The notes: generated by a model from the sequence alone, not told the origin. Positions 23,245-51,279 are shown, counted from the stretch's first letter. The stretch: DNA of 64,000 bases from Terriglobia bacterium (GCA_963664115.2 CAXWPJ010000002.1:288001-352000), one strand, 5' to 3'. A program made the numbers and translations.

Positions 23245-23284
23245 TTCTCAGCGTCCGACAATGTCGTTTCTCAGGACTTGAGAA
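23245..23284 (-). repeat. 40-bp 17-6-17 palindromic site A (reverse orientation)
   Basis: TTCTCAGCGTCCGACAA-TGTCGT-TTCTCAGGACTTGAGAA. Confidence 0.85.
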
Positions 23285-23312
23285 TTTGACTTGAGAATTT
23301 AATAGCACCTAG

Positions 23313-25161
23313 TCCCTGAACAAGCGTGATTGACGAGGAAATGATAGTGCAATAAGAGCGGAAGTACCCGAAATGCCCCGTCTCCGTGCGAAAAAAACCT
23401 TGAACAGATTCTTCGGAAAAGGAGGCATTTCAGATGAACGATTATACGCGCAAGAACATGAGGAACCGCAAGCGGCGAATCGAACGTCGGCTTGGGGACC
23501 GGCATTGGACGGATCAGGTAGAGCCGATGTTTTCGGCGAGCAACATTCAGTACGAGATGGGAGAGCGGACGCGGGGCACATCGGTTGGTGGTATCGGGAC
23601 GATGCAACTGGTGGCGCGGCGGACCGGGCTGATCGAAGCCATCGACAAGGGCGTGCATGTGTTGAAGCGGCACCTGCCGTATCACGAGTCGGATCACGTG
23701 CTGAACATCGCCTACAACGCCTTGAGCGGAGGAACGTGCCTGGAAGACATCGAACTGCGGCGCAACGATGCGGTGTATCTGGATGCGCTGGGAGCGCAAC
23801 GGATTCCGGATCCGACGACGGCGGGAGACTTCTGCCGGAGATTCGAGGCCGACGACGTGGAGTGTCTGATGGAGGCAACCAATCAAGTCCGGCTCGGAGT
23901 CTGGCGACAGCAACCGGCGGCGTTTTTCGAAGAAGCGGTGTTGGACGCGGACGGGACACTGGCCGAAACCACGGGGGAATGCAAGCAAGGGATGGACGTG
24001 GCCTACGACGGGACGTGGGGATATCACCCGCTGATGATCTCGCTGGCCAACACCGCCGAACCGCTGTATCTGGTCAATCGTAGCGGCAACCGGCCGTCGC
24101 ATGAAGGAGCCGCGGTCCGGTTCGACCAAGCCATCGCATTGTGCCGGCATGCGGGGTTTCGCCAGATCCTGCTGCGCGGGGACACGGACTTCAGCCAGAC
24201 CCGGCATCTGGACGGATGGGACGACCAGCAGGTGGGTTTCATATTCGGGATTGACGCGATGGCGAACCTGAAGGCCCGGGCCGATGAACTGGAGCCGCGC
24301 CAGTGGAAGCGCCTGGAACGGCCCGCGAAATACGACGTGGCGACCGAACCGCGCCAACGTCCCGACAACGTGAAGGAAGAGATCGTTCGGCAGCGCGGTT
24401 TCGACAATATCCGCTTGCAGGGTGAGGATGTGGCCGAGTTTCGGTATCGACCCGGAGCCTGCGATCGGGACTACCGTGTCGTCGTGGTGCGGAAGAATCT
24501 GTCGGTGGCCAAAGGAGAGCAGGTGTTGTTTGACGACATCCGGTACTTCTTCTACATTACCAACCGTTCGGATCCGGCCGACCAGATTGTGATGCGTGCC
24601 AATCAACGGTGCAATCAGGAGAATCTCATTGAGCAGTTGAAGAACGGCGTTCAGGCGTTGCGGATGCCGGTCGGAGATCAGACCAGCAACTGGGCCTACA
24701 TGGTGATCGCGTCACTGGCCTGGACACTGAAAGCGTGGTTTGCATTGCTGCTTCCCGAAACCGGACGTTGGGGCCAAAAATATCAGGCTGAGAAGCAAAC
24801 CGTGCTGCGCATGGAGTTCAAAACCTTCTTGAACGCTTTCATGCTTGTGCCGTGCCAACTCGTGCGCACCGGGCGGCGCATTCTGTTCCGGATCCTGGCC
24901 TGGAACCGGTGGTTGCCGGTCTTGTTCCGCGGGGTGGATGTGTTGCGTCAGCCTCTGCGATGTTGACCCGATCATGACTCTGAGCCCGGGCGATCGAGGT
25001 CCCGGTTTCTGTCAACCGTCCAACACCAGCGAGGCTGAACTGAAACAGATTCAACAGAAACTCGATACCTGGAACAGGCCATCCGGGAACGGGATTCTAT
25101 GCCTCGAATTCTATCGGCGCGAACTGGGCCTCGGCGGACTGGTTATGCGCTTGTTTTGGGA
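23313..25161 (+). mobile_element. IS1380-family insertion sequence, copy 2 (transposase 23434-24966)
   Basis: Identical 510-aa transposase, same IRs, CTAG flanks. Confidence 0.9.
23434..24966 (+). CDS. IS1380-family DDE transposase
   Basis: Identical protein to 9001-10533. Confidence 0.9.
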   Translation: MNDYTRKNMRNRKRRIERRLGDRHWTDQVEPMFSASNIQYEMGERTRGTSVGGIGTMQLVARRTGLIEAIDKGVHVLKRHLPYHESDHVLNIAYNALSGGTCLEDIELRRNDAVYLDALGAQRIPDPTTAGDFCRRFEADDVECLMEATNQVRLGVWRQQPAAFFEEAVLDADGTLAETTGECKQGMDVAYDGTWGYHPLMISLANTAEPLYLVNRSGNRPSHEGAAVRFDQAIALCRHAGFRQILLRGDTDFSQTRHLDGWDDQQVGFIFGIDAMANLKARADELEPRQWKRLERPAKYDVATEPRQRPDNVKEEIVRQRGFDNIRLQGEDVAEFRYRPGACDRDYRVVVVRKNLSVAKGEQVLFDDIRYFFYITNRSDPADQIVMRANQRCNQENLIEQLKNGVQALRMPVGDQTSNWAYMVIASLAWTLKAWFALLLPETGRWGQKYQAEKQTVLRMEFKTFLNAFMLVPCQLVRTGRRILFRILAWNRWLPVLFRGVDVLRQPLRC

Positions 25162-25164
25162 CTA

Positions 25165-26315
25165 GTGTACCCCGCTCGAAGTAATGTAACTAAAATAGCT
25201 TTCCAACGTCCAATAGAGAATGAGGAAAGCACCGACCATTGAATTGGATGACAAGCAGCGGATGGAGTTGGAGCGACTGAGTCGAAGCCGGAGTACATCG
25301 GTCCGGTTGGCGGAACGATCCCGAATTGTATTACTGGCCGCTGAAGGTCGGAACAATTATGAGATCGCCGCCCGCTTGGAGATCACGCGCCAGAAAGCGG
25401 GCCGCTGGCGCAATCGTTTTGTGGAACAGGGCTTGGCTGGGATCGAAAAGGATGCGCCGCGAAGCGGACGGATTCCCACGATCAGTCGCCGGAAGCGAGC
25501 CCGGATCGTCAAGAAGACACTGGAAGAGAAGCCCCCGAACGCGACGCACTGGAGTCGGGCCTCGATGGCGAAGGCCGTTGGCGTGAGCGAGTCCACGGTC
25601 GGGAAAATCTGGCGGGTCCATGGACTGAAGCCTCATCTGTCACGAACCTTCAAACTATCCAACGACAAACGATTCGCCGAAAAGCTGGAGGATGTGGTCG
25701 GTCTGTATCTGAGCCCACCGGAAAACGCCATTGTCTTGTCCTGCGATGAGAAGAGCCAGATGCAGGCCCTGGACCGCACGCAACCCGGGTTACCTCTGAA
25801 GAAGGGGCGGTGTGGCACCATGACCCACGATTACAAACGTAACGGGACAACCACGCTTTTCGCCGCGCTCAACATCCTGGACGGTTCGGTCATCGGAACC
25901 TGCATGCCAAAGCATCGCCATCAGGAATGGATCCGGTTTCTGAATCAGATCAAACGCGCCATGCCGAAAGATAAGGAGATCCACATTATTTGCGACAACT
26001 ATGCGACTCACAAACATCAGAAAGTCGTCAACTGGCTCAAGCGTAACAAGCGTTTTCATGTGCACTTCACGCCAACCAGTGCGTCGTGGCTCAACATGGT
26101 CGAGCGCTTTTTCCGGGATCTGTCCGAGCAACGACTCCGGCGTGGCGTTTTCCGCTCGGTCCCCGAGTTGATCCAGGCCGTGGAGGACTACCTCGCTCGT
26201 CACAATGAAGACCCGAAACCCTTCATCTGGACTGCAACGGCTTCCGACATCCTTGCTAAAGTCCAGCGCGGCCGGCGAAATCTTGATAAGTTACAGTCTG
26301 TTTAACGGGGACCAC
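25165..26315 (+). mobile_element. IS630-family insertion sequence, copy 1 (1151 bp, TA duplication within CTAG)
   Basis: Ends GTGTACCCCG / CGGGGACCAC; abuts IS1380 copy 2; same as 35204-36354. Confidence 0.9.
25220..26305 (+). CDS. IS630-family transposase
   Basis: HTH region, SCDEKS, DYKRNGT, CDNYATHK, SWLNMVERFF. Confidence 0.95.
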   Translation: MRKAPTIELDDKQRMELERLSRSRSTSVRLAERSRIVLLAAEGRNNYEIAARLEITRQKAGRWRNRFVEQGLAGIEKDAPRSGRIPTISRRKRARIVKKTLEEKPPNATHWSRASMAKAVGVSESTVGKIWRVHGLKPHLSRTFKLSNDKRFAEKLEDVVGLYLSPPENAIVLSCDEKSQMQALDRTQPGLPLKKGRCGTMTHDYKRNGTTTLFAALNILDGSVIGTCMPKHRHQEWIRFLNQIKRAMPKDKEIHIICDNYATHKHQKVVNWLKRNKRFHVHFTPTSASWLNMVERFFRDLSEQRLRRGVFRSVPELIQAVEDYLARHNEDPKPFIWTATASDILAKVQRGRRNLDKLQSV

Positions 26316-26379
26316 TAGCTCCCTCCCTTAGTATTCTTTACCGAGATTTTCGTTGTTCTTTCGGCGACACACTTTAATC

Positions 26380-26647
26380 ATGGAATCGGGCACTCAGCTA
26401 GGTCAGTACGAGATTCTGAGCCTTCTCGGTCAGGTTGGGGAATGGGTGAGGTGTGGCGTCCAAGGGACGCCAAGCCGGGACGCGAAGTGGCCATTAAGAC
26501 TTTGCCTGAGGAGATTGCCAAGGATGCGGATCGTCTCGCACGAATTGAACGTGAAGCGAAGCTTCTGGCTTCGCTCAATCATTCAAACATCGCTGTGATC
26601 CACGGGTTTGAAGAAGACAACGGGATGCACTTCCTTAGTCTTGGAAC
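26380..26647 (+). pseudogene. Ser/Thr protein kinase 5' fragment (copy 1), frameshifted and truncated
   Basis: [17 protein letters not shown], frameshift, then [37 protein letters not shown]; unrelated sequence follows. Confidence 0.85.
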
Positions 26648-26772: not shown

Positions 26773-29241
26773 ATGTCTGACTCGATTCCAACTTCTCTTT
26801 CATCTATCCTGGGCGCTGCCCGTTCGGCCATGCCGTCGCTGCCGGTGCTTTTCGTTCTCATGCTCCTGCCGGCGCTCTCTTTGGCTCAGGAGGGCACCGC
26901 AGTTCTGTCCGGCCGCATTTTGGACGACTCCGACGGTTCGGCGGTCGGCTTCGCGACCGTGCTGATCAAGAACACCACGGGAGAGCCTCTCTCTGGTGTC
27001 CTTGCTGGAGAGGACGGCCGCTTCCTGATCGAGGGTTTGGCGCCGGGCAACTACACCATCGCGATGTCGTTTCCCGGGTTTTTCCCTGAGGAGGCCAACG
27101 TACTTGTCTCCGAACTCAACCAGTCTTACGACCTGGGTGATATCGGCCTCGTTCGTCAGGTGGTCGAGCAGGAGATTACGGTCACGGCAGAGGCGATCCG
27201 GGTGGCCGGTATAAACACCGAGCTGTTCCGGCTCGACGAAGGGCCGACCCAGTCGACCGGATCGCTGCTCGATGCGATGCGGAATCTTCCTGGTGTGACG
27301 ATCGATCAAGAAGGCAGAGTGGCGCTTCGTGGTAGCGATCAGGTCTCCATCCTTATTGACGGCAGGCAGTCGAGCCTGACGGGATTTGGAAGTCAACGCG
27401 GCCTCGACAGCGTTTCCGCGGCCAATATAGAAGCGATCGAGATCATCCACAATCCTTCTGCGAGCTTTGACGCCGCCGGAATGGCCGGAATCATCAACAT
27501 CATCTACAAACAGGAAACGGAACTGGGCCTCTCGGGAGATCTTGGCCTGTCCGTCGGCGTCGGCCAGTTCTCCAAGCAGCAGCCCGATCTGCCGACTGAT
27601 CTCGGCAGCTTTTCGAACAACGGGAAGATCACGCCCAGCCTAAGCCTGAACTACAACACCGAGAGCGTCCGCAGCTTCGTCCAGACCGAAGTCCTCGTGC
27701 AGGACGATCTGCCAAACAACGAGTTCACGACCCGCTTCTACGACGACGGTCGCGTCATCCAGTCACAGGTGCCGGAAAACCGCGAGCAGACGCACTACAT
27801 CGTCCGGGCAGGCTCGGACATCAGCGTCGGTAGTTCCAACACGCTTTCGGTTTCAGGGATCTACGACTTCGAAACACATACCGACCGTGCGCAGGTTCCC
27901 TTCATCCTGGCGTCCACCGGTGAACGCGAGCGATTTTGGTTCTGGCAGGAAGAGGAAGATACAGGTTTCGCCAACATCAACTTCGATCTCAAGCACGAAT
28001 TCCCGACGCCCGGGCATGAGCTGAACGTCAATCTCCAATACACGCGTGGATGGGAGGACGAGGCGTACTTTCTCAACGAGGAATCAAGGGTTCGCGTGGG
28101 CACGGACATGACCCATCTTGTCGCCGAAGAGAACACTCTGCCACTGAGCATCGATTACATACGCCCGCTGTCGAGCGGTCGGTTGGAGTTGGGCACGAAG
28201 CTCCAAGCGCGCTGGCTGCCAATCACCTACACAGTCGACCGTGGCGTGCAGAGCGTGATTTATGAAGGACTCGGCGACTCTTCCGACTGGGACGAGGACA
28301 TTTACGCCGCGTACGCCAACCTGGTCCAGGTGAAGAACTCGTACTCATTTGAGGCCGGAGTCCGCATCGAGCAGACCAACGTCGCCTACACGATCCCGGA
28401 CGAGAACATCTACTACGAGGGCAGCGACGCGTACAACTACTTCGAGGTCTTTCCAAACGTCAAGTTCACCTACCGGCTGGGCGACGCGAATCAGCTGATC
28501 GCCGCGTACAACCGGCGCATCGATCGACCGGGAGAACCGGAACTGCGCATCTTTCCAAAGTACGACGATCCGGAACTGCTCAAAGTGGGCAACCCGTTTC
28601 TCCGGCCCCAGTTGACCAACGTGTTTGAGGTCGGCTTCGGACGATCGTGGGACGGCGGTTCCGTCAACACTGCCATCTACCACAGGGATCTCGCAGACGC
28701 GTTCCAGCGCGTTTTCGCCATCGACGATACCAACCCGGACTACGACATCGTAAACAGGATCTTCGAGAACGCCGGAAACTCCACCCAGACCGGAATCGAG
28801 GTGATCGTGGAACAGCAGATCGCCGCCCCATGGCGTCTGTCCGGAAGCGTCAACTGGTTCACGAACGACATCGAAGCCCTGGAAACCACCTTGCTGTTCC
28901 CGACACCGCGGCCGTTCACTCTGGCCGCTTCGAGAGACGACACCTGGGATTTCACCATCAACAACCAGTTCCGACTGCCCCGCACGGGGGAACTCCAATT
29001 GAGCTACATCTATTACGCTCGGAGGAACGTCCCCCAAGGCCGCGAGCGTGCACGCTCGTCGCTCGATCTGGCCGCCACCTGGCCCATAGTGAACGAACGC
29101 TCCGAACTGGTGTTCACCTTCAGCGATATCTTCAACGATTTTGCTGTGGAACGTGAGATCGACGGTCAAGGCTTCACGGCGATCTACCAGAACTTGTTGG
29201 AATCGCAAGTTGTCAGCGTTGGCGTAAGAACCCGGTTCTGA
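26773..29241 (+). CDS. TonB-dependent receptor / outer-membrane beta-barrel with carboxypeptidase-regulatory-like N-domain
   Basis: LPGVTID..G..LRG, IEIIHNPSA.FDAAG.AGIINI plug motifs, GNPFLRP, C-terminal F. Confidence 0.9.
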   Translation: MSDSIPTSLSSILGAARSAMPSLPVLFVLMLLPALSLAQEGTAVLSGRILDDSDGSAVGFATVLIKNTTGEPLSGVLAGEDGRFLIEGLAPGNYTIAMSFPGFFPEEANVLVSELNQSYDLGDIGLVRQVVEQEITVTAEAIRVAGINTELFRLDEGPTQSTGSLLDAMRNLPGVTIDQEGRVALRGSDQVSILIDGRQSSLTGFGSQRGLDSVSAANIEAIEIIHNPSASFDAAGMAGIINIIYKQETELGLSGDLGLSVGVGQFSKQQPDLPTDLGSFSNNGKITPSLSLNYNTESVRSFVQTEVLVQDDLPNNEFTTRFYDDGRVIQSQVPENREQTHYIVRAGSDISVGSSNTLSVSGIYDFETHTDRAQVPFILASTGERERFWFWQEEEDTGFANINFDLKHEFPTPGHELNVNLQYTRGWEDEAYFLNEESRVRVGTDMTHLVAEENTLPLSIDYIRPLSSGRLELGTKLQARWLPITYTVDRGVQSVIYEGLGDSSDWDEDIYAAYANLVQVKNSYSFEAGVRIEQTNVAYTIPDENIYYEGSDAYNYFEVFPNVKFTYRLGDANQLIAAYNRRIDRPGEPELRIFPKYDDPELLKVGNPFLRPQLTNVFEVGFGRSWDGGSVNTAIYHRDLADAFQRVFAIDDTNPDYDIVNRIFENAGNSTQTGIEVIVEQQIAAPWRLSGSVNWFTNDIEALETTLLFPTPRPFTLAASRDDTWDFTINNQFRLPRTGELQLSYIYYARRNVPQGRERARSSLDLAATWPIVNERSELVFTFSDIFNDFAVEREIDGQGFTAIYQNLLESQVVSVGVRTRF

Positions 29242-29260
29242 GGATCCAATATGCTTGTCC

Positions 29261-29300
29261 TTCTCAAGTCCTGACAAATCATCTTCTCGGACGTTGAACT
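29261..29300 (+). repeat. Palindromic site B
   Basis: TTCTCAAGTCCTGACAA-ATCATC-TTCTCGGACGTTGAACT. Confidence 0.85.
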
Positions 29301-29529
29301 TCGGGGAGAAGTGCCTAGGAACTGAAATAACGCCGGATTACTAACGATAAGTCGCCAAGGGTTTACCTATCCTGCGGAAGTGAATAGCTCTACCATTCGG
29401 CGTTGCCGAGGACGAATCGTCGCGGCCGCAGGCCGTCGCGCGACCTCTTGCTTTCATGTTTCTTTATCGAGATTTTCAAAGCCAGATTGAAAGAGTCGGT
29501 TCAGTGCCGTCCTATGAGATAGTGGCGTC

Positions 29530-29928
29530 ATGTACTGGCCGCCAACTCGGACGTTTCTGAAATACATCGTCATTCAGATTCCGGGCTGGCTCGGGCTGGT
29601 AGGCGTGCTGCTTTTGCTGTGGCGTCGAGTGGAAATGCCCGCCTGGGCCGCCGGCACGCTGCTCGGTTGCTGGGTTGTGAAAGACCTTGCTCTCTATCCG
29701 TTCCTCCGACGGTCATACGAAGAAGATCCACGGACGGGAGTTGAGCGTATGGTGGGCCTCCGTGGAGTCGTCACCACCGACCTCACGCCAAAGGGTTACG
29801 TCCGCGTGCGCGGCGAGCTGTGGCGTGCGACGGCCCCAACAGGGCCCGTGCCCAGAGGAAGCACGGTGGAAGTCGTCAGTGCTGCTGGTCGTCTTACTTT
29901 GGCGGTTGAACGGGTGCCGGTGCCCTAA
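29530..29928 (+). CDS. NfeD-family protein whose last residues (ERVPVP*) come from the kinase-tail repeat
   Basis: Two TM segments then G.ERMVG..G.V...L.P.GYVRVRGELWRA; ends GAACGGGTGCCGGTGCCCTAA. Confidence 0.8.
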   Translation: MYWPPTRTFLKYIVIQIPGWLGLVGVLLLLWRRVEMPAWAAGTLLGCWVVKDLALYPFLRRSYEEDPRTGVERMVGLRGVVTTDLTPKGYVRVRGELWRATAPTGPVPRGSTVEVVSAAGRLTLAVERVPVP

Positions 29929-29965
29929 ACGACGGTGAAAATGATTCTCAAGTCCCGAGAAATCA

Positions 29966-31214
29966 GGTGATCTCAACAGATCGATGCAACACTGTACCTA
30001 AAAGGAGGAGGTGGAGTGTATGCGTAAGAAACGACGGAAGAAACAGAGTAAAGACCGGGTGCGGCGAGGCTACACACTCGCCGATATAGACGAGGTGTGG
30101 ATTCGCTGGCAGCGGGGAGAGAGTCTGAAAGCGATCGGACGTGTGTTCGGAAAGGAGGGCTCTTCGGTTTATGGTCAGATCGCACCGTATGGTGGAATCT
30201 GTCCCAGGACACGATGCCGCTCTAAGCGGGCGCTGACCCTCGCCGAGCGTGAAGAGATTTCCCGAGGCATTGCCGCCAAGGGATCGATCCGTTCAATTGC
30301 CGAGTCGCTGTCGCGTACACCCTCCACAGTCAGTCGGGAGATCGGTCGCAATGGGGGCTATGATAACTATCGAGCGTTGGAGGCGGATGAACGCGCATGG
30401 GAACGGGCTCACCGCCCGAAGAGATGTCGACTGATCCGCTATCCCAGCTTACGCGGGATCGTCGAAGAGAAGCTCCGGGAGGATTGGGCACCGCGACAAA
30501 TTGCGGGTTGGCTGAAACGCGAATATCCAGACGACGAGTCACTTTACGTGTCACACGAAACGATCTATCGCAGCCTTTTCATCCAGGCCCGCGGGGCTCT
30601 GAAGAAAGAACTGACACAGCATCTACGGACCAAACGCACGATTCGCCGGTCCCAGCATGCCAGTCGCAAAGGCCGGGGTGGCGGGCAGATCCCGGATCTG
30701 ATATCGATCCGTGAGCGCCCGGCTTCGGTTGAAGATCGCGCGGTCCCCGGACACTGGGAAGGGGATCTCATAGCGGGTTCGAACAACACCTACATTGCGA
30801 CATTGGTCGAACGTTTCTCCCGGTACGTGATGCTGGTGAAGGTTCCGAATAAGGAAACCGAAACCGTCATCAACGCGCTGATCGAACACGCAGACAAACT
30901 CCCGACCGAACTCTATAAAACACTGACCTGGGATCGCGGATTGGAAATGGCCAATCACAAACGGTTCACTCTGGCCACCGACATTGCCGTTTACTTTTGC
31001 GATCCGAGGAGTCCCTGGCAACGGGGTTCGAACGAAAACACGAACGGTTTGCTCCGACAGTATTTCCCTAAAGGTACGGACTTGTCGGTTCACTCACAGG
31101 AGCATTTGGATATGATCGCAAGGAAGCTCAACGGGCGACCTCGTGAGACGCTGGACTTCGCTAATCCGGCAGAGACATTAAACGCAGGTGTTGCATCGAC
31201 CGGTTGATCTGAAT
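29966..31214 (+). mobile_element. IS30-family element (1249 bp) inserted in the spacer of palindromic site C (29945-29965 + 31215-31235), CA duplication
   Basis: IR cores TCGATGCAACAC / GTGTTGCATCGA; the flanks rebuild TTCTCAAGTCCCGAGAA-ATCATC-TTGTCGGACGTTGAGAA. Confidence 0.9.
30011..31207 (+). CDS. IS30-family transposase
   Basis: VSHETIY, GHWEGDL, LTWDRG.EM, PWQRGSNENTNGLLRQYFPKG. Confidence 0.95.
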   Translation: MECMRKKRRKKQSKDRVRRGYTLADIDEVWIRWQRGESLKAIGRVFGKEGSSVYGQIAPYGGICPRTRCRSKRALTLAEREEISRGIAAKGSIRSIAESLSRTPSTVSREIGRNGGYDNYRALEADERAWERAHRPKRCRLIRYPSLRGIVEEKLREDWAPRQIAGWLKREYPDDESLYVSHETIYRSLFIQARGALKKELTQHLRTKRTIRRSQHASRKGRGGGQIPDLISIRERPASVEDRAVPGHWEGDLIAGSNNTYIATLVERFSRYVMLVKVPNKETETVINALIEHADKLPTELYKTLTWDRGLEMANHKRFTLATDIAVYFCDPRSPWQRGSNENTNGLLRQYFPKGTDLSVHSQEHLDMIARKLNGRPRETLDFANPAETLNAGVASTG

Positions 31215-31278
31215 CATCTTGTCGGACGTTGAGAATTGGATGCACGGCTTACTACCATGTTCGGCGTAGAAGGACCAT

Positions 31279-31947
31279 ATGGATCGGCATTCGATAGTCC
31301 TAAGGGCCGCCAAACCCACGTTCGATGAAGGTCTGGCATTTGCCCGCTACCTTGACGAAGCAGCCGAAGGATTCTTTCGTATCATGCTCGGTCGCCGCGC
31401 CAGGTACATAGTTGCCACGGCGTTCGCCCAGCCCGACCACGACCTCTCCTACCAGTATGTGACTTGCGCAGAACGTGACAACGTCATCGTGGGAATGATC
31501 TCGGGGTTCACCGCGGAGCAGCATCGCCGTTCCTCGCGCCAACCTCTGAAGCGGGCTGCCGGAAGGCGTAATCTACGAATGAGGATCGTGCTCATACTGT
31601 TTGCTCCACTCATGCGGATTATCGATTCAATCGCCGATGGCGATTTCTACGGCCTGGCCATCGCTGTTGATAAGGAACTTCGCGGCCATGGCGTCGGCTC
31701 CCTCTTGATGAACTCCATTGAAGAGCGGGCTCGAGCGAGCGGATCGACTCGACTATCCGCCGACGTTTCAGCTAAGAATGAGGGATCTCGCCGATTCTGC
31801 GAGCGCCGCGGGATGAACGTCGAGTCGCAGTGGCCGAAGCGATGGGCTATACCGGGATTGAAGTTCTATCGAATGACAAAAGAGCTCCGAGCCTTCAACC
31901 GTGAAAATGATTCTCAAGTCCTGACAAATCATCTTCTCGGACCTTGA
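31279..31947 (+). CDS. GNAT N-acetyltransferase; C-terminus reads into palindromic site D
   Basis: AIAVDKELRGHGVGSLL acetyl-CoA motif; N..SRRF.ER.G. Confidence 0.85.
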   Translation: MDRHSIVLRAAKPTFDEGLAFARYLDEAAEGFFRIMLGRRARYIVATAFAQPDHDLSYQYVTCAERDNVIVGMISGFTAEQHRRSSRQPLKRAAGRRNLRMRIVLILFAPLMRIIDSIADGDFYGLAIAVDKELRGHGVGSLLMNSIEERARASGSTRLSADVSAKNEGSRRFCERRGMNVESQWPKRWAIPGLKFYRMTKELRAFNRENDSQVLTNHLLGP

Positions 31948-31950
31948 GAA
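31911..31950 (+). repeat. Palindromic site D
   Basis: TTCTCAAGTCCTGACAA-ATCATC-TTCTCGGACCTTGAGAA, preceded by the shared linker CCGTGAAAATGA. Confidence 0.85.
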
Positions 31951-32058
31951 TTTCAGCGAACGAAAACTCTCCTCTCGCCTGCCGTTCCTCGATTGGCTTT
32001 CAACTGGCTGTATCTCCCATTGTTTCAATGGAATGCGGCGACACGCTAAGCTTGCCAA

Positions 32059-32098
32059 TTCTCACTGTCCGACAATGTCGTTTCTCAGGACTTGAGAA
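32059..32098 (-). repeat. Palindromic site E (reverse orientation)
   Basis: TTCTCACTGTCCGACAA-TGTCGT-TTCTCAGGACTTGAGAA. Confidence 0.85.
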
Positions 32099-34772: not shown

Positions 34773-34835
34773 ACGTCCCAGAAGTCACCTTATGGGAAGT
34801 CAGGTCCCGATAAATCAATTGTCGGACAGTGAGAA
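34773..34835 (+). repeat. Two adjacent dif-like sites: second class 11-6-11 (34773-34800) and palindromic site F (34803-34835)
   Basis: ACGTCCCAGAA-GTCACC-TTATGGGAAGT then GGTCCCGATAA-ATCAA-TTGTCGGACAGTGAGAA. Confidence 0.75.
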
Positions 34836-35203
34836 TTGGATGAGATCCGCCAGCTCACAACTTTCTTGCTTATAACCCATACCTGTAGTTAGATTTATCC
34901 AACTTTTTCACGTTTCGTTTCGGCACACACTAATTTATGGAATCTGGCACCAAACTCGGCCACTACGAGATCTCAACGCTCCTTGGAAAAGGAGGCATGG
35001 GGGAAGTGTGGCGTGCCCGGGACACGAAACTGGGGCGTGAAGTTGCGATCAAAACCCTGCCAGAAGAGTTTGCTAAAGATGCTGATCGGTTGGCACGCTT
35101 TGAACGTGAAGCCAAACTTCTGGCGTCGCTGAATCACCCAAACATTGCAGCCATCCACGGGTTTGAAGAGGACAACGGAACGCACTTCCTTGTGCTGGAA
35201 CTA

Positions 35204-36354
35204 GTGGTCCCCGTTAAACAGACTGTAACTTATCAAGATTTCGCCGGCCGCGCTGGACTTTAGCAAGGATGTCGGAAGCCGTTGCAGTCCAGATGAAGGG
35301 TTTCGGGTCTTCATTGTGACGAGCGAGGTAGTCCTCCACGGCCTGGATCAACTCGGGGACCGAGCGGAAAACGCCACGCCGGAGTCGTTGCTCGGACAGA
35401 TCCCGGAAAAAGCGCTCGACCATGTTGAGCCACGACGCACTGGTTGGCGTGAAGTGCACATGAAAACGCTTGTTACGCTTGAGCCAGTTGACGACTTTCT
35501 GATGTTTGTGAGTCGCATAGTTGTCGCAAATAATGTGGATCTCCTTATCTTTCGGCATGGCGCGTTTGATCTGATTCAGAAACCGGATCCATTCCTGATG
35601 GCGATGCTTTGGCATGCAGGTTCCGATGACCGAACCGTCCAGGATGTTGAGCGCGGCGAAAAGCGTGGTTGTCCCGTTACGTTTGTAATCGTGGGTCATG
35701 GTGCCACACCGCCCCTTCTTCAGAGGTAACCCGGGTTGCGTGCGGTCCAGGGCCTGCATCTGGCTCTTCTCATCGCAGGACAAGACAATGGCGTTTTCCG
35801 GTGGGCTCAGATACAGACCGACCACATCCTCCAGCTTTTCGGCGAATCGTTTGTCGTTGGATAGTTTGAAGGTTCGTGACAGATGAGGCTTCAGTCCATG
35901 GACCCGCCAGATTTTCCCGACCGTGGACTCGCTCACGCCAACGGCCTTCGCCATCGAGGCCCGACTCCAGTGCGTCGCGTTCGGGGGCTTCTCTTCCAGT
36001 GTCTTCTTGACGATCCGGGCTCGCTTCCGGCGACTGATCGTGGGAATCCGTCCGCTTCGCGGCGCATCCTTTTCGATCCCAGCCAAGCCCTGTTCCACAA
36101 AACGATTGCGCCAGCGGCCCGCTTTCTGGCGCGTGATCTCCAAGCGGGCGGCGATCTCATAATTGTTCCGACCTTCAGCGGCCAGTAATACAATTCGGGA
36201 TCGTTCCGCCAACCGGACCGATGTACTCCGGCTTCGACTCAGTCGCTCCAACTCCATCCGCTGCTTGTCATCCAATTCAATGGTCGGTGCTTTCCTCATT
36301 CTCTATTGGACGTTGGAAAGCTATTTTAGTTACATTACTTCGAGCGGGGTACAC
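35204..36354 (-). mobile_element. IS630-family insertion sequence, copy 2 (transposase 35214-36299)
   Basis: Identical protein to copy 1; TA duplication in CTAG. Confidence 0.9.
35214..36299 (-). CDS. IS630-family transposase
   Basis: Identical to 25220-26305. Confidence 0.95.
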   Translation of the reverse strand: MRKAPTIELDDKQRMELERLSRSRSTSVRLAERSRIVLLAAEGRNNYEIAARLEITRQKAGRWRNRFVEQGLAGIEKDAPRSGRIPTISRRKRARIVKKTLEEKPPNATHWSRASMAKAVGVSESTVGKIWRVHGLKPHLSRTFKLSNDKRFAEKLEDVVGLYLSPPENAIVLSCDEKSQMQALDRTQPGLPLKKGRCGTMTHDYKRNGTTTLFAALNILDGSVIGTCMPKHRHQEWIRFLNQIKRAMPKDKEIHIICDNYATHKHQKVVNWLKRNKRFHVHFTPTSASWLNMVERFFRDLSEQRLRRGVFRSVPELIQAVEDYLARHNEDPKPFIWTATASDILAKVQRGRRNLDKLQSV

Positions 36355-38838: not shown

Positions 38839-38878
38839 TTCTCAAGTCCTGAGAAATCATCTTGTCGGACATTGAGAA
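38839..38878 (+). repeat. Palindromic site G (best copy)
   Basis: TTCTCAAGTCCTGAGAA-ATCATC-TTGTCGGACATTGAGAA, 16 bp after the kinase stop. Confidence 0.9.
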
Positions 38879-39035: not shown

Positions 39036-40559
39036 ATGAATCGACGAGAGTTCATTGGCAGTGCGACGGGCTTGGGTGCGGCATTGGCATTCCCCGCCGG
39101 GCGTTCAAGTAGACTCATGGCGATTCAACTGCCAACCGACATCGTCGGCTTCACTGCGTCGCAACTGTCGACGGCTATCCAACAAAGACAAGTTAGTTGC
39201 GTCGAAGTGATGGAAGCCTATCTACAACAGATTCACCGTTACAATCCAGTCTATAACGCCATCGTCAGCATGGCCGATGACGATCTGCTAATCAGCCAGG
39301 CGGAACTCGCCGATCAAGCCTTGGCCCGCGGCGAATATCGGGGTTGGATGCACGGAATGCCTCATGCCGTCAAGGACCTGTACGATGCGGAAGGCTTTCC
39401 AACAAGCAGGGGCTCTACCATCTACGCGGGAACCGTGGCGGAACAAGATAGTTTCATGATCGGCAGAATCCGTAGCCAGGGCGCGATCTTCATAGGAAAG
39501 ACGAATGTGCCTGAATTTGGTATGGGTTCGCAATCATACAACCCTGTATTCGGTGCCACGGGCAGCGCGTACAATCCGGCACTGACGGCAGGTGGTAGCA
39601 GTGGTGGCGCCGCAAGTGGTCTTGGGACCCACATGCTTCCGGTGGCTGACGGTGGTGACTTGATGGGGTCGCTTCGCAATCCAGGCGCCTTCAATAACGT
39701 GATCGGATTTAGGCCTAGTCAGGGGCGAGTGCCGGGCGGTGGCGGGGGCGACCTGTTTTACCAGCAGATGTCCACAGGTGGTCCGATGGGGCGTAACAGT
39801 GAAGATACGATTCGCCTTCTGCACAGTATCGCCGGCTACGACTCCGGCCAACCGCTGACCCTCAGGGGTGAAATACCGCCCTATGAGGAGTTCAGGGCGC
39901 GTGATCTACGGGACCTCAAAATCGGGTGGATGGAAAATTATGAAGGCTATCTCAACATCGAACCTGGCATTCTTGAACTCTGTGAAGCCAGCCTCGGTGG
40001 TCTCACAAGAGAGGGCGCGATTGTCGAGTCGTGCAGGCCACAGTACGACATGGACCGGCTTTGGCAGACTTGGCTGACGTTACGCCACTGGACCCGTCAC
40101 GGAACTAGGGCGCTCTACGACGATCCCGACACTCGAAAGCTGTTAAAGCCGGAAGCCATCTGGGAGATCGAAGGCTCGTTCGACGCTTCGGGGGCGGATA
40201 TATACGAGGCAGGAATCGCCCGTGCAGACTGGTTCCGTGCTTTGGATTCTCTGTTTGATGAGTACGACTTCTTGGTCTTGCCAACTGCTCAGGTATTTCC
40301 TTTCTCAAAGGAGATTCATTGGCCCGAGTCCATCAACGGCGTTCGGATGGACACCTATCATCGCTGGATGGAGGTAGTAATTGGGGGGACATTGGCTGGC
40401 CTCCCAGTGGTCAACGTACCCGTGGGGTTCGATCAGCGGGGCCGACCCATGGGCATGCAAGTCATGGGACGGTTCGGGGAGGATCAGAGGATTCTGGAAT
40501 TTGCCATGGCCTACGAACGAGTTACGGATCACCTAGACCTGCGTCCAGAATTGGTTTAA
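39036..40559 (+). CDS. Amidase signature family enzyme, Tat-exported
   Basis: NRREF Tat motif; AVKD, GKTNVPEF, GGSSGG, DGGDLMGSLRNP. Confidence 0.9.
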   Translation: MNRREFIGSATGLGAALAFPAGRSSRLMAIQLPTDIVGFTASQLSTAIQQRQVSCVEVMEAYLQQIHRYNPVYNAIVSMADDDLLISQAELADQALARGEYRGWMHGMPHAVKDLYDAEGFPTSRGSTIYAGTVAEQDSFMIGRIRSQGAIFIGKTNVPEFGMGSQSYNPVFGATGSAYNPALTAGGSSGGAASGLGTHMLPVADGGDLMGSLRNPGAFNNVIGFRPSQGRVPGGGGGDLFYQQMSTGGPMGRNSEDTIRLLHSIAGYDSGQPLTLRGEIPPYEEFRARDLRDLKIGWMENYEGYLNIEPGILELCEASLGGLTREGAIVESCRPQYDMDRLWQTWLTLRHWTRHGTRALYDDPDTRKLLKPEAIWEIEGSFDASGADIYEAGIARADWFRALDSLFDEYDFLVLPTAQVFPFSKEIHWPESINGVRMDTYHRWMEVVIGGTLAGLPVVNVPVGFDQRGRPMGMQVMGRFGEDQRILEFAMAYERVTDHLDLRPELV

Positions 40560-40743
40560 AGAACTGAAGGAACGGGTGCCGGTGCCGTGATCGGTTTGCA
40601 TTTCCTACTCACCACTCGACCAGCGTCTCTTCCGTAATCGCCGCCCCGCAGCCATCGAAACGAACCCTGCGCTTCATTGACAGTGCCATTCGCAAACTCT
40701 ACAATTCGCTGAAAACTGCTCCGCATTACAAGAGGTGACTCCA

Positions 40744-41724
40744 ATGAAACGAGCTATGGTATATGTGGCGTCGGGCGCGGTGTGCGCTATTCTTTCCTGC
40801 GGTTCCGCCTTTTCCCAGGAAGCTATTCCGACTGGAGGCCCGATTCCCGACATACGCGGATTCACCAGCCGGCTCAACGATCCCGAGGCGGTTGCGGCGA
40901 TCGAGGTAGTTGTCCGCCATGTTGCCGGGCAGGTGTACGTGATTGCGGGCGCAGGTGGGAATGTGACGGTCATGGCGGGCGATGATGGCATTTTCATCGT
41001 CGACACGAATTACCCCGCTTTCTACGACCAGATCATAGCCGCAATTCGACGCATCTCGGACGGGCCCATCCGCTTCGTGGTCAACACGCACTCTCACCTA
41101 GACCACAGCGGCAACAACGAAAGCTTTGCCAGGGAGGGCGCGGTGATCATCACTCAGCCCAACCTGCGCCGGGCGTTGATAGGAGATCGCAGCGGTTCGG
41201 ATCTTCCGGGCGGATTGCCTGTGATCACATCGACGGAACCGATGTCGTTTCACTTCAACGGGGAGGAAGTTCTCTTCGTGCCGTTGAAGCCCTCGCACAC
41301 GGACGGAGACGCGGCGGTGTACTTCAGCGGTTCCGACGTGTGGTCCTTTGGTGACGTGTACCGGACGGACTATCCGTCCTTGAATCCCTCCGTTGGTGGC
41401 ACGATTGAGAATTTCGTTGATATTTACAGCATGGCGCTTGATATGACGACGCCGGCCACGATTTTTGTCCCCGGCCACGGCCAACTCTCGCCCAGAGAGG
41501 AGCTGAGCGGAGTGCTTGACGCCGTGATCACGATTCAGGGTCGTTTCCGCGACATGGTGGCACGGGGCATGACGCTCGACGAGATCATGGAGGCACGTCC
41601 GTCAAGGGAGTTCGATGCTCGCTTCTCCAGCGAATCCAAATCGCCCACCACGGGCAATACGGTAGAGCGCGTTTACACTCGCTTTTACGAAGATGTTTCA
41701 CGGGAGCTGGCGGAACAACAGTGA
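40744..41724 (+). CDS. MBL-fold metallo-hydrolase (cyclase-like), exported
   Basis: NTHSHLDHSGNN, SHTDGD, FGD, VPGHG. Confidence 0.9.
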   Translation: MKRAMVYVASGAVCAILSCGSAFSQEAIPTGGPIPDIRGFTSRLNDPEAVAAIEVVVRHVAGQVYVIAGAGGNVTVMAGDDGIFIVDTNYPAFYDQIIAAIRRISDGPIRFVVNTHSHLDHSGNNESFAREGAVIITQPNLRRALIGDRSGSDLPGGLPVITSTEPMSFHFNGEEVLFVPLKPSHTDGDAAVYFSGSDVWSFGDVYRTDYPSLNPSVGGTIENFVDIYSMALDMTTPATIFVPGHGQLSPREELSGVLDAVITIQGRFRDMVARGMTLDEIMEARPSREFDARFSSESKSPTTGNTVERVYTRFYEDVSRELAEQQ

Positions 41725-42006
41725 AGGACTTCCCCGGATGGGTCCTGTCATGTTAGCTGGAATTCGTTCTGTTTCGAGGAGAAATCGATTCTAGCCAGGC
41801 CAGGAATCATCAACTTAGCTGGCATTGCGATCAGTGAAATCTTCATTTGATCGGTTTACTTGGCAACCCCTTTCTGTAGGACCGTCTTCTCTACACATGG
41901 TGGCCGCTAGAAAATCAACATCGTCCTGAACTGCTTGAAGAACTGAAGGAACGGGTGCCGGTTCCTTAGACGACCGTGAAAATGATTGTCAACGCCCGAT
42001 AAATCA

Positions 42007-42082
42007 ATTCGGATCAACCGGTCGATGCAACACTTTACTGAAAAGGAGAGGTCAAGTGTTGCATCGATCTATTGAGACCACC
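42007..42082. mobile_element. 76-bp IS30-type MITE inserted in the spacer of palindromic site H (41986-42006 + 42083-42103), CA duplication
   Basis: ATTCGGATCAACCGGTCGATGCAACAC...GTGTTGCATCGATCTATTGAGACCACC closely match both ends of the IS30 at 29966-31214. Confidence 0.85.
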
Positions 42083-42490
42083 CATCTTCGCGGACGTTGA
42101 GAATGCGTCGATTCCAATCATTGCTTCCAACCCACTCGTTCTAAAGCATAGGACTGGTTGCCCTAAGCCGACTCCTGGGGCGTTGAATTTGGATCGGTAA
42201 ACGAAACGGCGTTACTCGCGAGTAATCGTCGTTGATACCGCACGTCCTCAACCGCCGCGGACTGGGTGTCCGCAGCCCTTTCGACACTCTTGAACCTATA
42301 GTCGCTGTGCAAATCATCGAAAGATGGGGGTATGCGGTCATCTAGGTCTACAATGAGAGAAATCGGGATGGTAGCACTCCTCCATTAGCACCCACCGCAT
42401 CTGCTCTGCGAAGTCATCCTGTGCTGGTCCGGCCGTCCAAACCGAGGCACTGGATCGACGCTCCAAAACCTGTCGGTCACCCGGAGAACC

Positions 42491-44179
42491 ATGGAACTCG
42501 AAGAGAAATCTAATGAAGTGCAGAATCTCATCGCTAGGGGGAAGGAAAAGGGCTACTTGCTCTACGAGGACGTGAGCGATCTCCTGCCGCCCCAGATGAC
42601 GGCTTCGGCCGAGGCTCTCGAGGACCTGTTTTCTGCTTTCGACGCGGCCGGAATCGAGGTGATTGAGACCGAGGATCAGTCCTTTGCGACCGAGAAGCTG
42701 ACCCCATCGAAGAGACCCACTGCGGCGACGCGCACGAATGAAGTGACGTCGGACCTCACTCCGGGCGCTCGGGACAGGACGAATGACCCGATCCGCATGT
42801 ACCTGCGTGAGATGGGCACGGTTCCCCTCTTGACGCGTGCTGGCGAAGTACAGATTGCCAAGAGGATCGAACGGGGGCAGTTGCGGGTGCAGCAGTCGCT
42901 CTCTCGCTCCCCGCTGGTAATCCAGAAGATTCTGGCTGCAGGCGAGGCGTTGAAGAAGGATCCCAGCGTCATCAAAAACCTCGCGCAATTCACCCAAGAT
43001 GATCTGACTGAGGAGAGGATCGAAGAGATCCACGGCAACGTGGTTGAGACCATTGCTCAGATCAAGAGACTCAACCGCCGAGTGGGCACGCTCCAGACGA
43101 AACTGGTATCGATTCCGAGGTCTCGAAAGGCGAGGGAGCATCATAAGGCACGCTGGAAATTGGGTCGGAAACGAGTCGAACTCTCCAGGCTTGTCCGATC
43201 TTTGGATTATTCGGCAACGGAAAAGATGGCCTTGATTCTGCTCGTGCGCGAAGCTATCAGCATCATTCGACCGTTGGAGAAACAATTGGCCCATCTGGAG
43301 CGCAGTAAGGGCCACACGAGGAAGGAATACAGGAAGAACGTCCAGAAAGAAATCCGTGCGGTCAAGCGGAAGATCAAGGCTTTCGAACAAGAGCACGATA
43401 CGACCGCCCTGGAACTACGTCGCACGCTGCAGTCGATCGTGCGCGGCCAGAACCAGGCCGAAAACGCAAAGCGGGAACTCGTAGAAGCAAACTTGCGTTT
43501 GGTCGTTTCGATCGCTAAGAAGTACTCGAATCGAGGCTTGCAGTTGCTCGACATGATCCAGGAAGGCAACGTCGGCCTGATGAGGGCTACCGATAAGTTT
43601 GAGTACCGAAGAGGGTATAAGTTTTCGACCTACGCGACCTGGTGGATCCGGCAGGGGATTACGCGGGCGATCTCCGATCAGGCAAGAACAATCCGTGTTC
43701 CGGTCCACATGATGGAGATGATTAACAAAATGATACGGACTTCCCGGATGCTGGTTCACGAATTGGGGCATGAGCCGACCAACGACGAAATTGCAGAGAA
43801 GATGGGGATCCCCGTAGGGAAGGTCCGGAAAATCATGAAGGTCGCTCAGCAACCGATCTCACTGGAAACGCCGATCGGAGAAGAGGACGATTCCCATTTG
43901 GGGGATTTTATCGAGGACCCAGGCGCGGTCTCCCCTTCCGATGCGGTGGTCAAGCTGAACCTCAATGAGATGACCGAGCAGGTCCTGAACACGCTGACGC
44001 CTCGTGAGGAGCGCATCATCAAGATGAGATTTGGCTTGGAGGACGGCAGCGAACACACCTTAGAAGAAGTTGGACAGATCTTTGGCGTGACCCGAGAGAG
44101 GATCCGTCAGATTGAAGCGAAGGCTCTCAAAAGGCTGCGCCACCCGACGAAGAGTTCGCGCCTCAGGGGCCTTTTGTGA
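42491..44179 (+). CDS. rpoD: RNA polymerase sigma-70 factor, RpoD type
   Basis: Region 1.1 GKEKGYL, 1.2 [11 protein letters not shown], 2 [15 protein letters not shown] and YATWWIRQ, 4 [22 protein letters not shown]. Confidence 0.9.
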
Positions 44180-44243: not shown

Positions 44244-44456
44244 AGTTCAAGTCCTGTTGAGATCACACCCGTTGTCGGACGTTGACCTTCGCGGAAAAGT
44301 GTCTAGGACCTGGAGTAACGCCGGATTAGTAACGATAAGTCGCCTAGCGTTTAGGAATCGGGGGCATTAACGACCCAGAAGTCGGCTTAGGGGAAGTTGG
44401 CGGAGACAGAGATGACGGCTCAAGTCCTGAGAAATCATCTTCTCGGACATTGAGAG
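44244..44456 (+). repeat. Site cluster: degenerate site I (44244-44287), second-class site (44370-44397), site J (44417-44456)
   Basis: TCAAGTCCTG...TTGTCGGACGTTGA; ACGACCCAGAA-GTCGGC-TTAGGGGAAGT; CTCAAGTCCTGAGAA-ATCATC-TTCTCGGACATTGAGA. Confidence 0.8.
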
Positions 44457-44970: not shown

Positions 44971-45051
44971 AGGAACGGGTCCCGACCCCCTGATTCTTGA
45001 GTTCAGGTCCTTCCAGCATTTGACACCTGGGTGTGTTGACCTGTCGCATGG

Positions 45052-45456: not shown

Positions 45457-45460
45457 GATC

Positions 45461-48432: not shown

Positions 48433-48444
48433 GAGGGGTATGAG

Positions 48445-49563: not shown

Positions 49564-49632
49564 TCCTCAAGGAGACCTATATATCTTCGAATGGCCCAGA
49601 GCCGAAGCAGGCTTAGGGCAACGGGAGCCGCC

Positions 49633-50061
49633 ATGCGGAATGCAATCACGATAGTTTGCACGGTTGTCGCGGGTGCTGCGTTACTGTTCTCAGCGCCAGT
49701 TTCTGCACATCATTCGTTTGCAGCAGCGTACGACGAGAGTAAGCCGGTAAACCTGCAGGGAGTAGTCACTCAGGTGGAATTGGTCAACCCGCACTCCTGG
49801 ATCTGGATGGATGTGACCCAAGAAGACGGTACCGTGACCAACTGGGGGCTGGAAGGGGGTCCACCGATTAACCTCTTCAGGAACGGTGTAACGAAAGACA
49901 CCCTGCCGGTAGGGTCCGAGATCACGGTCTTTGCGTATCAGGCCAAGAGCGGAGAAAGCAAAGGCGTCGCGGTGTTCTTCGAGTATCTGGATGGACGAAA
50001 GGTGTTCATGGGCGGTTCTGCCCCGGGCGCTGATGGTAATCCAAGCCCTCGTACTCGGTAG
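49633..50061 (+). CDS. DUF6152-like secreted protein
   Basis: VSAHHSFAAAYD, VNPHSWIWMDV, WGLE. Confidence 0.85.
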   Translation: MRNAITIVCTVVAGAALLFSAPVSAHHSFAAAYDESKPVNLQGVVTQVELVNPHSWIWMDVTQEDGTVTNWGLEGGPPINLFRNGVTKDTLPVGSEITVFAYQAKSGESKGVAVFFEYLDGRKVFMGGSAPGADGNPSPRTR

Positions 50062-50120: not shown

Positions 50121-50624
50121 ATGTCACTCCTCAGCTTCTGCGAATGGCTGGCGGCCACGCCGCCAAGCATCGCACTCCACGAGTCCCACTACATGTTCCT
50201 GATCGTCTTGACCGTACACGTGCTGACCCTGTGCGTGTTTGTAGGGACGGCCGTAATGATCGACCTGCGTCTTCTCGGCCTCACAATGCTACACGTGCCA
50301 GCATCGGAGGTTGTCCGACGGCTTGTCCCTTGGGCCGGCGGAGGCTTTCTGGTGATGGTTATCTCAGGATTGCTACTGTTCTATGCGGCGCCAGTGGACA
50401 GGTACGAAAATCTCTTCTTTCGGGCCAAGATGGCGATGCTGGTGCTCGCCGGTGTCAATGCGTGGGTGTTCCACAAGAAAGTGTATCGCAGCATCGCAGA
50501 ATGGGATCTGGATCCGGTCCCCCCACCGGGGGCCCGGCTGGCCGGCGGTTTGGCTTTGGCGTTGTGGGCTGGCCTTATCCTGGCGGGGCGCATGATTCCC
50601 TACCAACTCTATTGGTTTGGCTAG
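50121..50624 (+). CDS. DUF6644-like 4-TM membrane protein
   Basis: VHVL...DLRLLG, SG.LLF, F..KM, GR.IPY. Confidence 0.8.
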   Translation: MSLLSFCEWLAATPPSIALHESHYMFLIVLTVHVLTLCVFVGTAVMIDLRLLGLTMLHVPASEVVRRLVPWAGGGFLVMVISGLLLFYAAPVDRYENLFFRAKMAMLVLAGVNAWVFHKKVYRSIAEWDLDPVPPPGARLAGGLALALWAGLILAGRMIPYQLYWFG

Positions 50625-50629
50625 TGTCA

Positions 50630-51100
50630 ATGTTGGAATTCTTCGAATGGCTCCAATACTCCTCCCTGCTGGTCGCGATGCGCGGCTCGCCGTGGCTCTT
50701 TCCAATCATTGCAAGCATGCATCTGCTGGGCTTGGCCCTCCTCGGCGGAGCCGTTCTGGTGGTTGACCTGCGCCTCCTGGGGCTGGGCTTGTCGCGCCAG
50801 CCTGTCGCCAGACTTGCGCGTGACGCCGAGCGATGGTTGCTCGCCAGTCTTGCCGTAATGTTGCCGACCGGGACCCTGCTGTTCATGTGTTTCGCAACGA
50901 AGTACTACTACCTGACAGCCTTCTGGGTAAAGGTAATCTCCCTCCTCGCAGTGCTCGCCTTTACTTTCTCCGTCCGCCGCCGAGTGATCATGGCCGATGA
51001 GCGGAACATGAGCGCTATCGGGAGCAAGTTGGTAGCCCTGGCCTCACTCTCGCTGTGGACAGCCGTGGCGTTGGCGGGACGATTGATCGGGTTTCCGTAA
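50630..51100 (+). CDS. DUF6644-like 4-TM membrane protein
   Basis: MHLLG...VDLRLLG, TG.LLF, FWVK, AGRLIGF; true start inside the longer ORF. Confidence 0.8.
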   Translation: MLEFFEWLQYSSLLVAMRGSPWLFPIIASMHLLGLALLGGAVLVVDLRLLGLGLSRQPVARLARDAERWLLASLAVMLPTGTLLFMCFATKYYYLTAFWVKVISLLAVLAFTFSVRRRVIMADERNMSAIGSKLVALASLSLWTAVALAGRLIGFP

Positions 51101-51240
51101 CAGGCTTTATTGAATTCATGTCCGCGCACTCTCGTGTGGACATCGGGGCCTCGGCCCGTCAGCCGCTTTGGGGGAAGTTGATAAACCCTGCGATTGCGGT
51201 ATCTGGCGTCGACCCTTTCAATAAACTGTGGGCGGATTGC

Positions 51241-51279
51241 CCTCGAGACCTGGCAAATCATCTTCTCCGAAGTTGAGAA
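51241..51279 (+). repeat. Degenerate palindromic site K
   Basis: CCTCGAGACCTGGCAA-ATCATC-TTCTCCGAAGTTGAGAA. Confidence 0.55.

Follow-up and report, generated by a model that had tools for sequence, protein, structure and literature searches.

Imperfect 40-bp palindromes in a Terriglobia genome as probable recombinase sites bounding exchangeable gene cassettes

Why does one 40-bp imperfect palindrome recur along a single stretch of bacterial chromosome, mostly just behind the ends of genes? The stretch, referred to below as the window, comprises 64,000 nucleotides of a Terriglobia bacterium (GCA_963664115.2 CAXWPJ010000002.1:288001-352000). A sequence-only reading had noted between its positions 23245 and 51279 a family of about 11 such palindromes, each with two 17-base arms around a 6-base spacer (17-6-17). 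Comparisons of genome sequences suggest that these repeats are very probably recombinase sites that bound mobile cassettes.

The motif was present at all 11 of the listed places, and six of these hold an intact 17-6-17 site at the reported start. A position weight matrix built from seven window copies and applied at a score of at least 22 found 175 copies in the 4.89-Mb genome that holds the window (called G000; C-numbers denote its contigs, other G-numbers related genomes, and L-numbers loci) and found none in two shuffled genomes at the lower cut-off of 15; related genomes also contain matches. Separate matrices for the two spacer classes described below counted 179 intact sites and 120 further half-site matches in G000. 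Among the 175 copies, positions 4 to 17 and 24 to 37 are mostly invariant except for 15, 26, 27, and 33, the conservation reaches three bases past the 11-bp arm, and the two arms are shifted against each other by one base. The 11-6-11 core with inward-facing AA and TT, which had been likened to the geometry of tyrosine-recombinase sites, was confirmed in window and genome copies alike. Two spacer classes were apparent, class A with ATCATC (133 of the 175 sites) and class B with ACGACA or ACGACC (21 sites). The sites are confined to islands that span 438 kb, or 9% of the genome. A third, minor site type with the spacer GTCGGC or GTCACC has 9 copies in G000 and resembles the site upstream of the recombinase in L051. 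The first 15 to 20 bases behind many A sites vary far more than the remainder of related cassette heads, and this variable stretch sometimes looks like a third, worn arm.

Several observations indicate that DNA is exchanged at these sites. First, a comparison of 169 sites gave 21 pairs with at least 90% identity in one flank and different sequence in the other. None of these flank-swap pairs has a spacer mismatch, and the identity ends between site positions -9 and +48 in 17 of the 21. Second, 30 of the 136 ends of low-copy duplications lie at sites, a count that includes reciprocal matches and three intron ends, and the sites cover 0.4% of the genome. Third, individual cassettes of the window recur among other neighbors. 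For example, a 99% copy of the NfeD cassette, with sites at both ends, lies at C12:161223-161923; the GNAT cassette recurs from site to site at C12:516495-517235 (91%) and in G001 (95%); and in G002 a site is followed by a 92% copy of the DUF2087 cassette, which in the window lies behind the 44417 site. Finally, in X14, a run of a separate study, one contig aligns with 29261-29924 starting at its base 1073 and not before, and the strain behind it thus appears to carry a different neighbor joined to the NfeD cassette exactly at the 29261 site. Other read joints at 97% identity mostly had fewer than 30 letters on one side and came from other site copies, and these were not used.

Strand exchange by tyrosine recombinases requires matching spacers, and the spacers were compared across relatives. 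With the spacer left free, matches were found in 10 of 61 related genomes (160 in G000, 115 in G002, 64 in G003, 18 in G001, 8 in G004, and 1 to 6 in five others). The arms are the same in G004, and the spacer there is ATCCGG in 8 of 14 sites (14 fetched regions). A variant pattern matched in 22 of 301 genomes of the class and in 16 of 50 genomes of family f6, where the arms are again the same and the spacers begin with GTC in 21 and with ACG in 20 of 45 matches, facing pairs included. Arms conserved between lineages together with spacers uniform within a lineage are what would be predicted for a tyrosine-recombinase site. The earlier suggestion of such a site is thereby supported, as cassettes swap neighbors at the site and spacers are uniform within a genome and different between genomes; the accompanying idea of modules also stands, with site-bounded cassettes recurring next to other neighbors. 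No match to the site was found in viral contigs. A short contig assigned to Dehalococcoidia (L342) carries a B-type site with the same promoter-like flank, by either transfer or misbinning.

Mobile elements also single out the site. The insertion sequence (IS) IS30 inserts at the exact dyad center with a 2-bp duplication in sites of both spacer classes, in 6 of 6 near-full copies and 2 of 2 miniature elements, and it occupies the dyad center again, with a different spacer, in the distant locus L397. Of two IS110-family elements (Pfam), one lies within a site in all 7 of its copies and the other in 6 of 8, with an arm visible by eye at the remaining two. All 3 copies of a group II intron (Rfam) that lacks an open reading frame (ORF) occupy the right arm. 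Control elements were near a site in 0 of 31, 3 of 75, 5 of 55, 1 of 19, and 1 of 8 copies. The targeting by IS110 elements and the intron parallels that of IS1111-attC elements and IIC-attC introns in passages of PMC3001079, and IS targeting parallels that of IS1202-group elements at Xer sites in passages of bioRxiv 2022.12.17.520857. The convergence of IS30, IS110, and group II introns on one recombination site appears to be a new case.

Sites and genes follow a repeating unit, seen twice in the window, that consists of a reverse B site, a promoter-like stretch with a kinase start, one or more forward A sites, often a linker, and the next reverse B site. Neighboring A and B sites are on opposite strands in 38 of 41 pairs in G000, in line with the inverted pairs once compared to plasmid dif (pdif) modules, but neighboring A sites depart from that comparison, sharing a strand in 93 of 98 pairs. 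The linker between facing A and B sites is 108 bp in 4 and 18 to 19 bp in 7 of 16 cases. A promoter-like match lies behind 17 of 24 B sites by a pattern fitted to those same B sites, and a generic promoter scan did not list this stretch. As previously described, reverse copies with the ACGACA spacer stand ahead of kinase heads (both at 23245 and at 32059) and most A sites lie behind gene ends, many of them close behind a stop codon. Genes in A-to-A modules are mostly co-oriented (231 of 351), and the cargo is varied, with 226 of the 535 predicted module genes from four genomes being singletons and no recombinase among the 535 being common to the arrays. In 52 of the 101 G000 modules that end at an A site there is a stump of the 3′ end of the kinase, fused at various points to unrelated DNA, and 130 kinase tails were counted in the genome. 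One kinase ORF has been swapped between promoters, with the exchange starting at its ATG. This layout leads us to infer that incoming cargo takes the place of a kinase cassette's interior. Of 75 fetched loci with kinase homologues from other taxa, 52 were examined, and the site occurred in a single one, which came from G001.

Some results weigh against cassette exchange by simple crossover at these sites. Arm variants (positions 12-15, 26-27, and 32-33) do not strictly accompany the adjacent flank, with 16 and 10 shared-side mismatches. Therefore, a clean crossover confined to the spacer does not fit, and conversion or branch migration within the site would be needed. In addition, several large duplicated blocks (C6/C11) may not be independent events but variants of different strains merged in one assembly; contigs of G000 share blocks of 7 to 16 kb that are possibly strain variants.

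Which enzyme would act at the sites? The leading candidate is a 316-amino-acid (aa) tyrosine recombinase encoded at C5:52189-53139 between two inverted B sites, one 131 bp upstream and the other ∼90 bp downstream. We lean slightly toward the cassette-boundary repeats being the crossover sites of this dedicated, mobile Xer-like recombinase. A metagenome scan returned 32 contigs, and 7 of these, five of which represent one element, have a gene of this recombinase family directly next to the site. Inverted same-class sites flank the recombinase gene in G000, L308, and L397, with four more sites near the L397 gene, and a site precedes the gene in L303 and L309. Across 52 family loci, a site was found within ∼300 bp upstream or 600 bp downstream in 17, compared to 6 of 260 shuffled flanks, although 11 of the sites behind the count of 17 had seeded the matrices. 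The catalytic motifs of the protein are intact. It scores below the XerC, XerD, and XerS cut-offs (60 against a cut-off of 267 for XerS), the nearest solved structure is archaeal XerA, and it more likely belongs to a separate Xer-like family, for which databases contain at least 7,999 close relatives. In the predicted recognition helix, K is found in clades that adjoin this arm type and N in clades that adjoin a different one. Families f1 and f6 differ in the XerD helix, yet both have retained the site arms. Neither the site nor the enzyme family was described in the open-access literature searched.

Other recombinases of the genome were considered as well. A 293-aa tyrosine recombinase, present in 6 identical copies and 2 relatives, is paired with an IS91-like transposase, and every copy is near a site or half-site. 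The 2.4-kb element that carries it (C1:92965, C1:107675, C2:196490, C12:35350, C12:158198, C12:487026, C12:569262, and C3:2990) inserts either at the spacer edge or 25 to 32 bp away from a site, and its right end has a XerC-arm-like stretch. Since this recombinase belongs to its own element and was not seen in G003, it was set aside as the site enzyme and is taken to be a passenger associated with the site. The 73% match seen near C10:200280 proved to be an antisense IS frame. A sensitive hidden Markov model search of G000 found no further intact tyrosine recombinase; the genome has three serine resolvase genes.

The distribution of the 316-aa enzyme weighs against its role. The family was not found in the site-rich genomes G002 (115 matches) and G003 (64 matches), nor in G004 and G029, and G026 has only a fragment, yet the sites of G002 are about as well kept as those of G000 (0.91 against 0.75 mismatches). 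The enzyme occurs in only 3 of 51 f6 genomes, where the copies are without a strong adjacent site, and in none of the five listed f6 genomes that are positive for the site. In G107, which also has sites, there are only three tyrosine recombinases, and two of these are XerC/D-like. Conversely, no site was found at 35 of the 52 family loci or at the G007 and G001 copies, and a quick tree does not group the G000 enzyme with the clade sharing its arm type.

A real rival, in view of these gaps, is that the host XerC, alone or together with XerD, recombines the repeats as chromosomal sites of the dif-module kind, comparable to the attP of integrative mobile elements exploiting Xer (IMEX) with its degenerate XerD arm, the 316-aa enzyme being only cargo. 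XerC and XerD are the only tyrosine recombinases found common to G000 and G003, and they are likely the sole candidates in G107. We nevertheless consider this explanation less likely. The right arm, read inwards, bears some resemblance to a XerC arm, matching the genome's own at 7.1/11 and the predicted Koribacter one, taken from the supplement of PMC3025954, at 8.8/11. However, the left arm makes a poor XerD arm (5.1-6.0/11 with the TTATGT core absent), and the conserved stretch goes three bases beyond an 11-bp arm. Divergent XerD arms exist at the toxin-linked cryptic (TLC) phage and gonococcal genomic island (GGI) sites according to passages of PMC5357621, and chromosomal dif-module islands of Acinetobacter are described in parts of PMC12907356. 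Here the sites are mainly direct repeats with one fixed spacer, whereas pdif sites alternate and their centers are poorly conserved; moreover, direct-repeat sites persist within 20 to 60 kb of dif, and f1 and f6 have the same site arms despite differing in their dif XerC arms and XerD helix. In its recognition helix, XerD of family f1 has G or A (L001, L066, L078, L080, L082, and L084) where Q is usual, as in E. coli. The sites are not the chromosomal dif. A comparison placed a separate canonical dif at C2:∼108123, at a GC-skew change and ∼42 kb from xerD, and G000 has XerC, XerD, and dif together; G001 to G004 and G007 have one canonical dif each. A plain pdif/XerCD identity for the repeats is thus not supported, given that dif lies elsewhere, that the site has no XerD arm, and that A sites are direct and not alternating.

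A second alternative dispenses with site-specific recombination. Under it, the repeats are protein-bound sequences (paired operators, each arm a TTCTCA-N5-TGAGAA dyad) that spread with the kinase modules, and the shuffling is RecA-type recombination running across the 40-bp repeat and the shared kinase heads and tails. This would account for arm variants that re-assort on both sides of the spacer, and it draws on the high repetition of kinase heads and tails (130 tails), the kinase ORF exchanged from its ATG, and the tail-to-head kinase arrays with few sites in genus g4. It leaves unexplained the two spacer classes that do not mix and are conserved in kind across families, the fixed-geometry sites around the recombinase gene, and the kinase-free sites in f6 and L397, and it has most A sites behind gene ends to contend with. 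We regard it as improbable.

Still less probable are single-strand hairpin substrates, either attC-like for an integron integrase or repetitive extragenic palindrome (REP)-like for a REP-associated tyrosine transposase (RAYT). Weak hairpins do form (folding z-scores of +0.2 to -3.4 in 8 folds), but the one unpaired base per arm reported earlier appeared cleanly for the 44417 copy and for no other. Such a substrate predicts covariation of paired bases, and none was found (positions 15/26, P = 0.49), which argues against attC and leaves the attC analogy unsupported; besides, the loop is the best-conserved part, the RYYYAAC/GTTRRRY boxes are absent, and Rfam gave no match in the window. Direct-repeat arrays of mostly co-oriented genes would suit hairpin substrates, as would the targeting of the site by IS110/IS1111-type elements and a group II intron, which passages of PMC3001079 describe for attC. 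An intI gene is present in G000, but 196 kb separate it from the closest site, none was detected in G003 or G004, and no site adjoins intI or RAYT-like genes in relatives. REP/REPIN repeats, which would be expected to flank a RAYT gene and to be dispersed in core intergenic DNA, were rejected on the grounds that sites are limited to islands and have no linkage to RAYT-like genes: the site is absent at 7 Y1-domain (RAYT-like) loci of relatives. One Y1-domain gene in G000 lies ∼300 bp from a site, with a tRNA-end duplication between them. Intrinsic terminators or RNA stabilizers are hardly credible although many A sites closely follow a stop codon, since none of the 10 terminator-like matches in 28500-45500 is a site, the stems are AT-rich with no U-tract, and spacer classes and neighbor exchange are left unexplained.

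Returning to recombination by the dedicated enzyme, a mechanism can be proposed. Two sites would be bound by four subunits of one enzyme, with strand exchange taking place across the 6-bp spacer, in which case only like spacers would react. Crossovers between A sites in direct repeat would excise circles that are later re-inserted, those between inverted A sites would invert or rejoin blocks, and B-to-A units would be exchanged through a double crossover; crossovers between B sites would flip the recombinase gene itself. Migration of the Holliday junction or gene conversion within the 34-bp core would re-assort arm variants while keeping spacers uniform. Cargo would be acquired by replacement of the kinase-cassette interior that is not site specific, leaving head and tail stumps, and genomes without the enzyme would be orphan arrays visited by it from time to time. 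Taken together, the sites likely form a recombinase-driven gene-cassette system that matches neither integrons nor known dif modules. More tentatively, they might represent a third bacterial class of gene cassettes beside integrons and dif modules, with a mobile Xer-like enzyme, double-stranded sites, and two private spacer addresses per lineage. Such a class would combine natural heterospecific cassette exchange with excision and insertion, would have built about a tenth of the chromosome with a kinase gene as its carrier cassette, would include an enzyme able to flip its own gene, and would be old and stable enough for four unrelated mobile elements to have become specialized on its site.

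The window can be read from left to right in these terms. A reverse class B site (23245..23284, spacer ACGACA) has its left arm facing a promoter-like stretch and a kinase head that two ISs have pushed apart. One of them, an IS1380-type element (23309..25165, forward, as are the features below unless noted), sits inside the B-linked promoter; with 75 near-full genome copies, 3 near a site, it is not site targeted. A truncated Ser/Thr kinase head (26380..26640) is a remnant of the carrier cassette and is followed by a TonB-dependent receptor (26773..29241), the cargo of this B-to-A module. Next come the class A site (29261..29300, ATCATC) at which X14 has a different sequence joined upstream and the NfeD cassette (29301..29944), whose gene (29530-29928) ends in a kinase-tail peptide. 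The two copies once called split are indeed interrupted, the first of them (29945..31235) at its dyad center by an IS30 element (29966-31214, 2-bp target duplication CA; right arm at 31219-31235). Behind it lie the GNAT acetyltransferase cassette (31236..31910) and a class A site (31911..31950); the GNAT frame (31279-31947) has lost its stop and reads through this site, whereas the G001 copy stops before it. A 108-bp linker (31951..32058, no strand) separates this site from the reverse class B site that it faces (32059..32098, ACGACA), after which the promoter-like stretch and a truncated kinase head (at 32189) recur.

Further on, a site of the third type (34773..34800, spacer GTCACC) overlaps a worn class A site with a 5-base spacer (34797..34835); a site was rightly reported here, but the start given, 34803, is that of its 11-bp core. 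The Ser/Thr kinase with a PD40 propeller (34937..38822) is the carrier gene, the head and tail of which recur in other cassettes, and it is split by an IS630 element (coding sequence 35214-36299). A consensus-like class A site (38839..38878) precedes the amidase and metallo-beta-lactamase-fold cargo (39036..41724; kinase-tail remnants at 40553 and 41932), and the second split class A site (41986..42103, right arm 42087-42103) holds a 76-bp IS30-derived miniature element (42007-42082) at its dyad center. A full-length sigma-70 gene with regions 1.1 to 4 (42491..44179; kinase-tail remnant at 44204) is cargo between two sites. The motif reported at 44244 is present (44244..44288), but a regular spacer is not: this damaged class A site has an 11-base center that resembles an IS30 end and is likely a scar. 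A third-type site (44370..44397, spacer GTCGGC) and a class A site with the DUF2087 cassette behind it (44417..44456) follow. The last copy is a worn class A site with an intact spacer (51240..51279). Its start had been given as 51241, one base off, whereas the starts at 23245, 29261, 31911, 32059, 38839, and 44417 were exact.

Several cargo features were seen in passing. Three DUF6152 genes of the window (32685-33179, 45052-45456, and 49591-50061) each adjoin an unannotated gene of secreted type, and the window gene 45461-47044 falls in the largest cargo cluster, of 51 members. Tandem kinase arrays in G026, G029, and G007 (L221-L249), in which the kinase stop overlaps the next start, have few 40-bp sites and captured cargo between kinase head and tail; they are possibly a site-free, homology-driven version. 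At three places in G000 (C2:771581, C6:39774, and C11:7894) the cargo ends with the putative start of an integron attC site, and integron cassettes may thus be one source of cargo. The IS load of G000 is heavy, with about 75 IS1380-type, 55 IS256-like, and 31 IS630-type copies.

If the cassette system is real, Acidobacteria, an abundant and poorly cultured phylum, would build much of their accessory genome with it, and integron and pdif finders would miss it. It would also provide a mechanism for the kinase-paralog expansions reported in Acidobacteria; the passages of PMC3174227 that list these paralogs do not mention the 40-base sites. The same arms with lineage-specific spacers in two classes would constitute a natural set of orthogonal recombinase sites.

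How does this compare with known systems? Sedentary integrons and clusters of attC sites lacking integron integrases (CALINs) likewise have co-oriented arrays behind a promoter-bearing lead site and orphan enzyme-free arrays, and their sites are colonized by IS1111-type elements and group II introns (passages of PMC3001079). Here, in contrast, there are no attC boxes and no hairpin covariation, the central spacer is conserved, the candidate enzyme is not an IntI, and the cassettes have their own promoters and often several genes. The dif modules of Acinetobacter share enzyme-free modules between 11-6-11 sites, multi-module islands, and targeting by ISs, as described in parts of PMC12907356, PMC9455709, and bioRxiv 2022.12.17.520857. 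They differ from the present sites, which have no XerD arm, longer conserved arms, two fixed spacer classes in place of variable centers, mostly direct repeats, ∼180 chromosomal copies, and a candidate enzyme of their own. XerS/difSL and XerH/difH resemble the present case in having one Xer-like enzyme beside its site and imperfect arms with one extra base (passages of PMC5357621). However, theirs are single terminus sites for dimer resolution, whereas here a normal dif with XerC and XerD is kept and the site has multiplied into arrays. Engineered recombinase-mediated cassette exchange likewise uses heterospecific lox/FRT sites, in which two incompatible spacers between identical arms delimit the segment to be exchanged. 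The system described here is natural and adds strings of direct-repeat sites.

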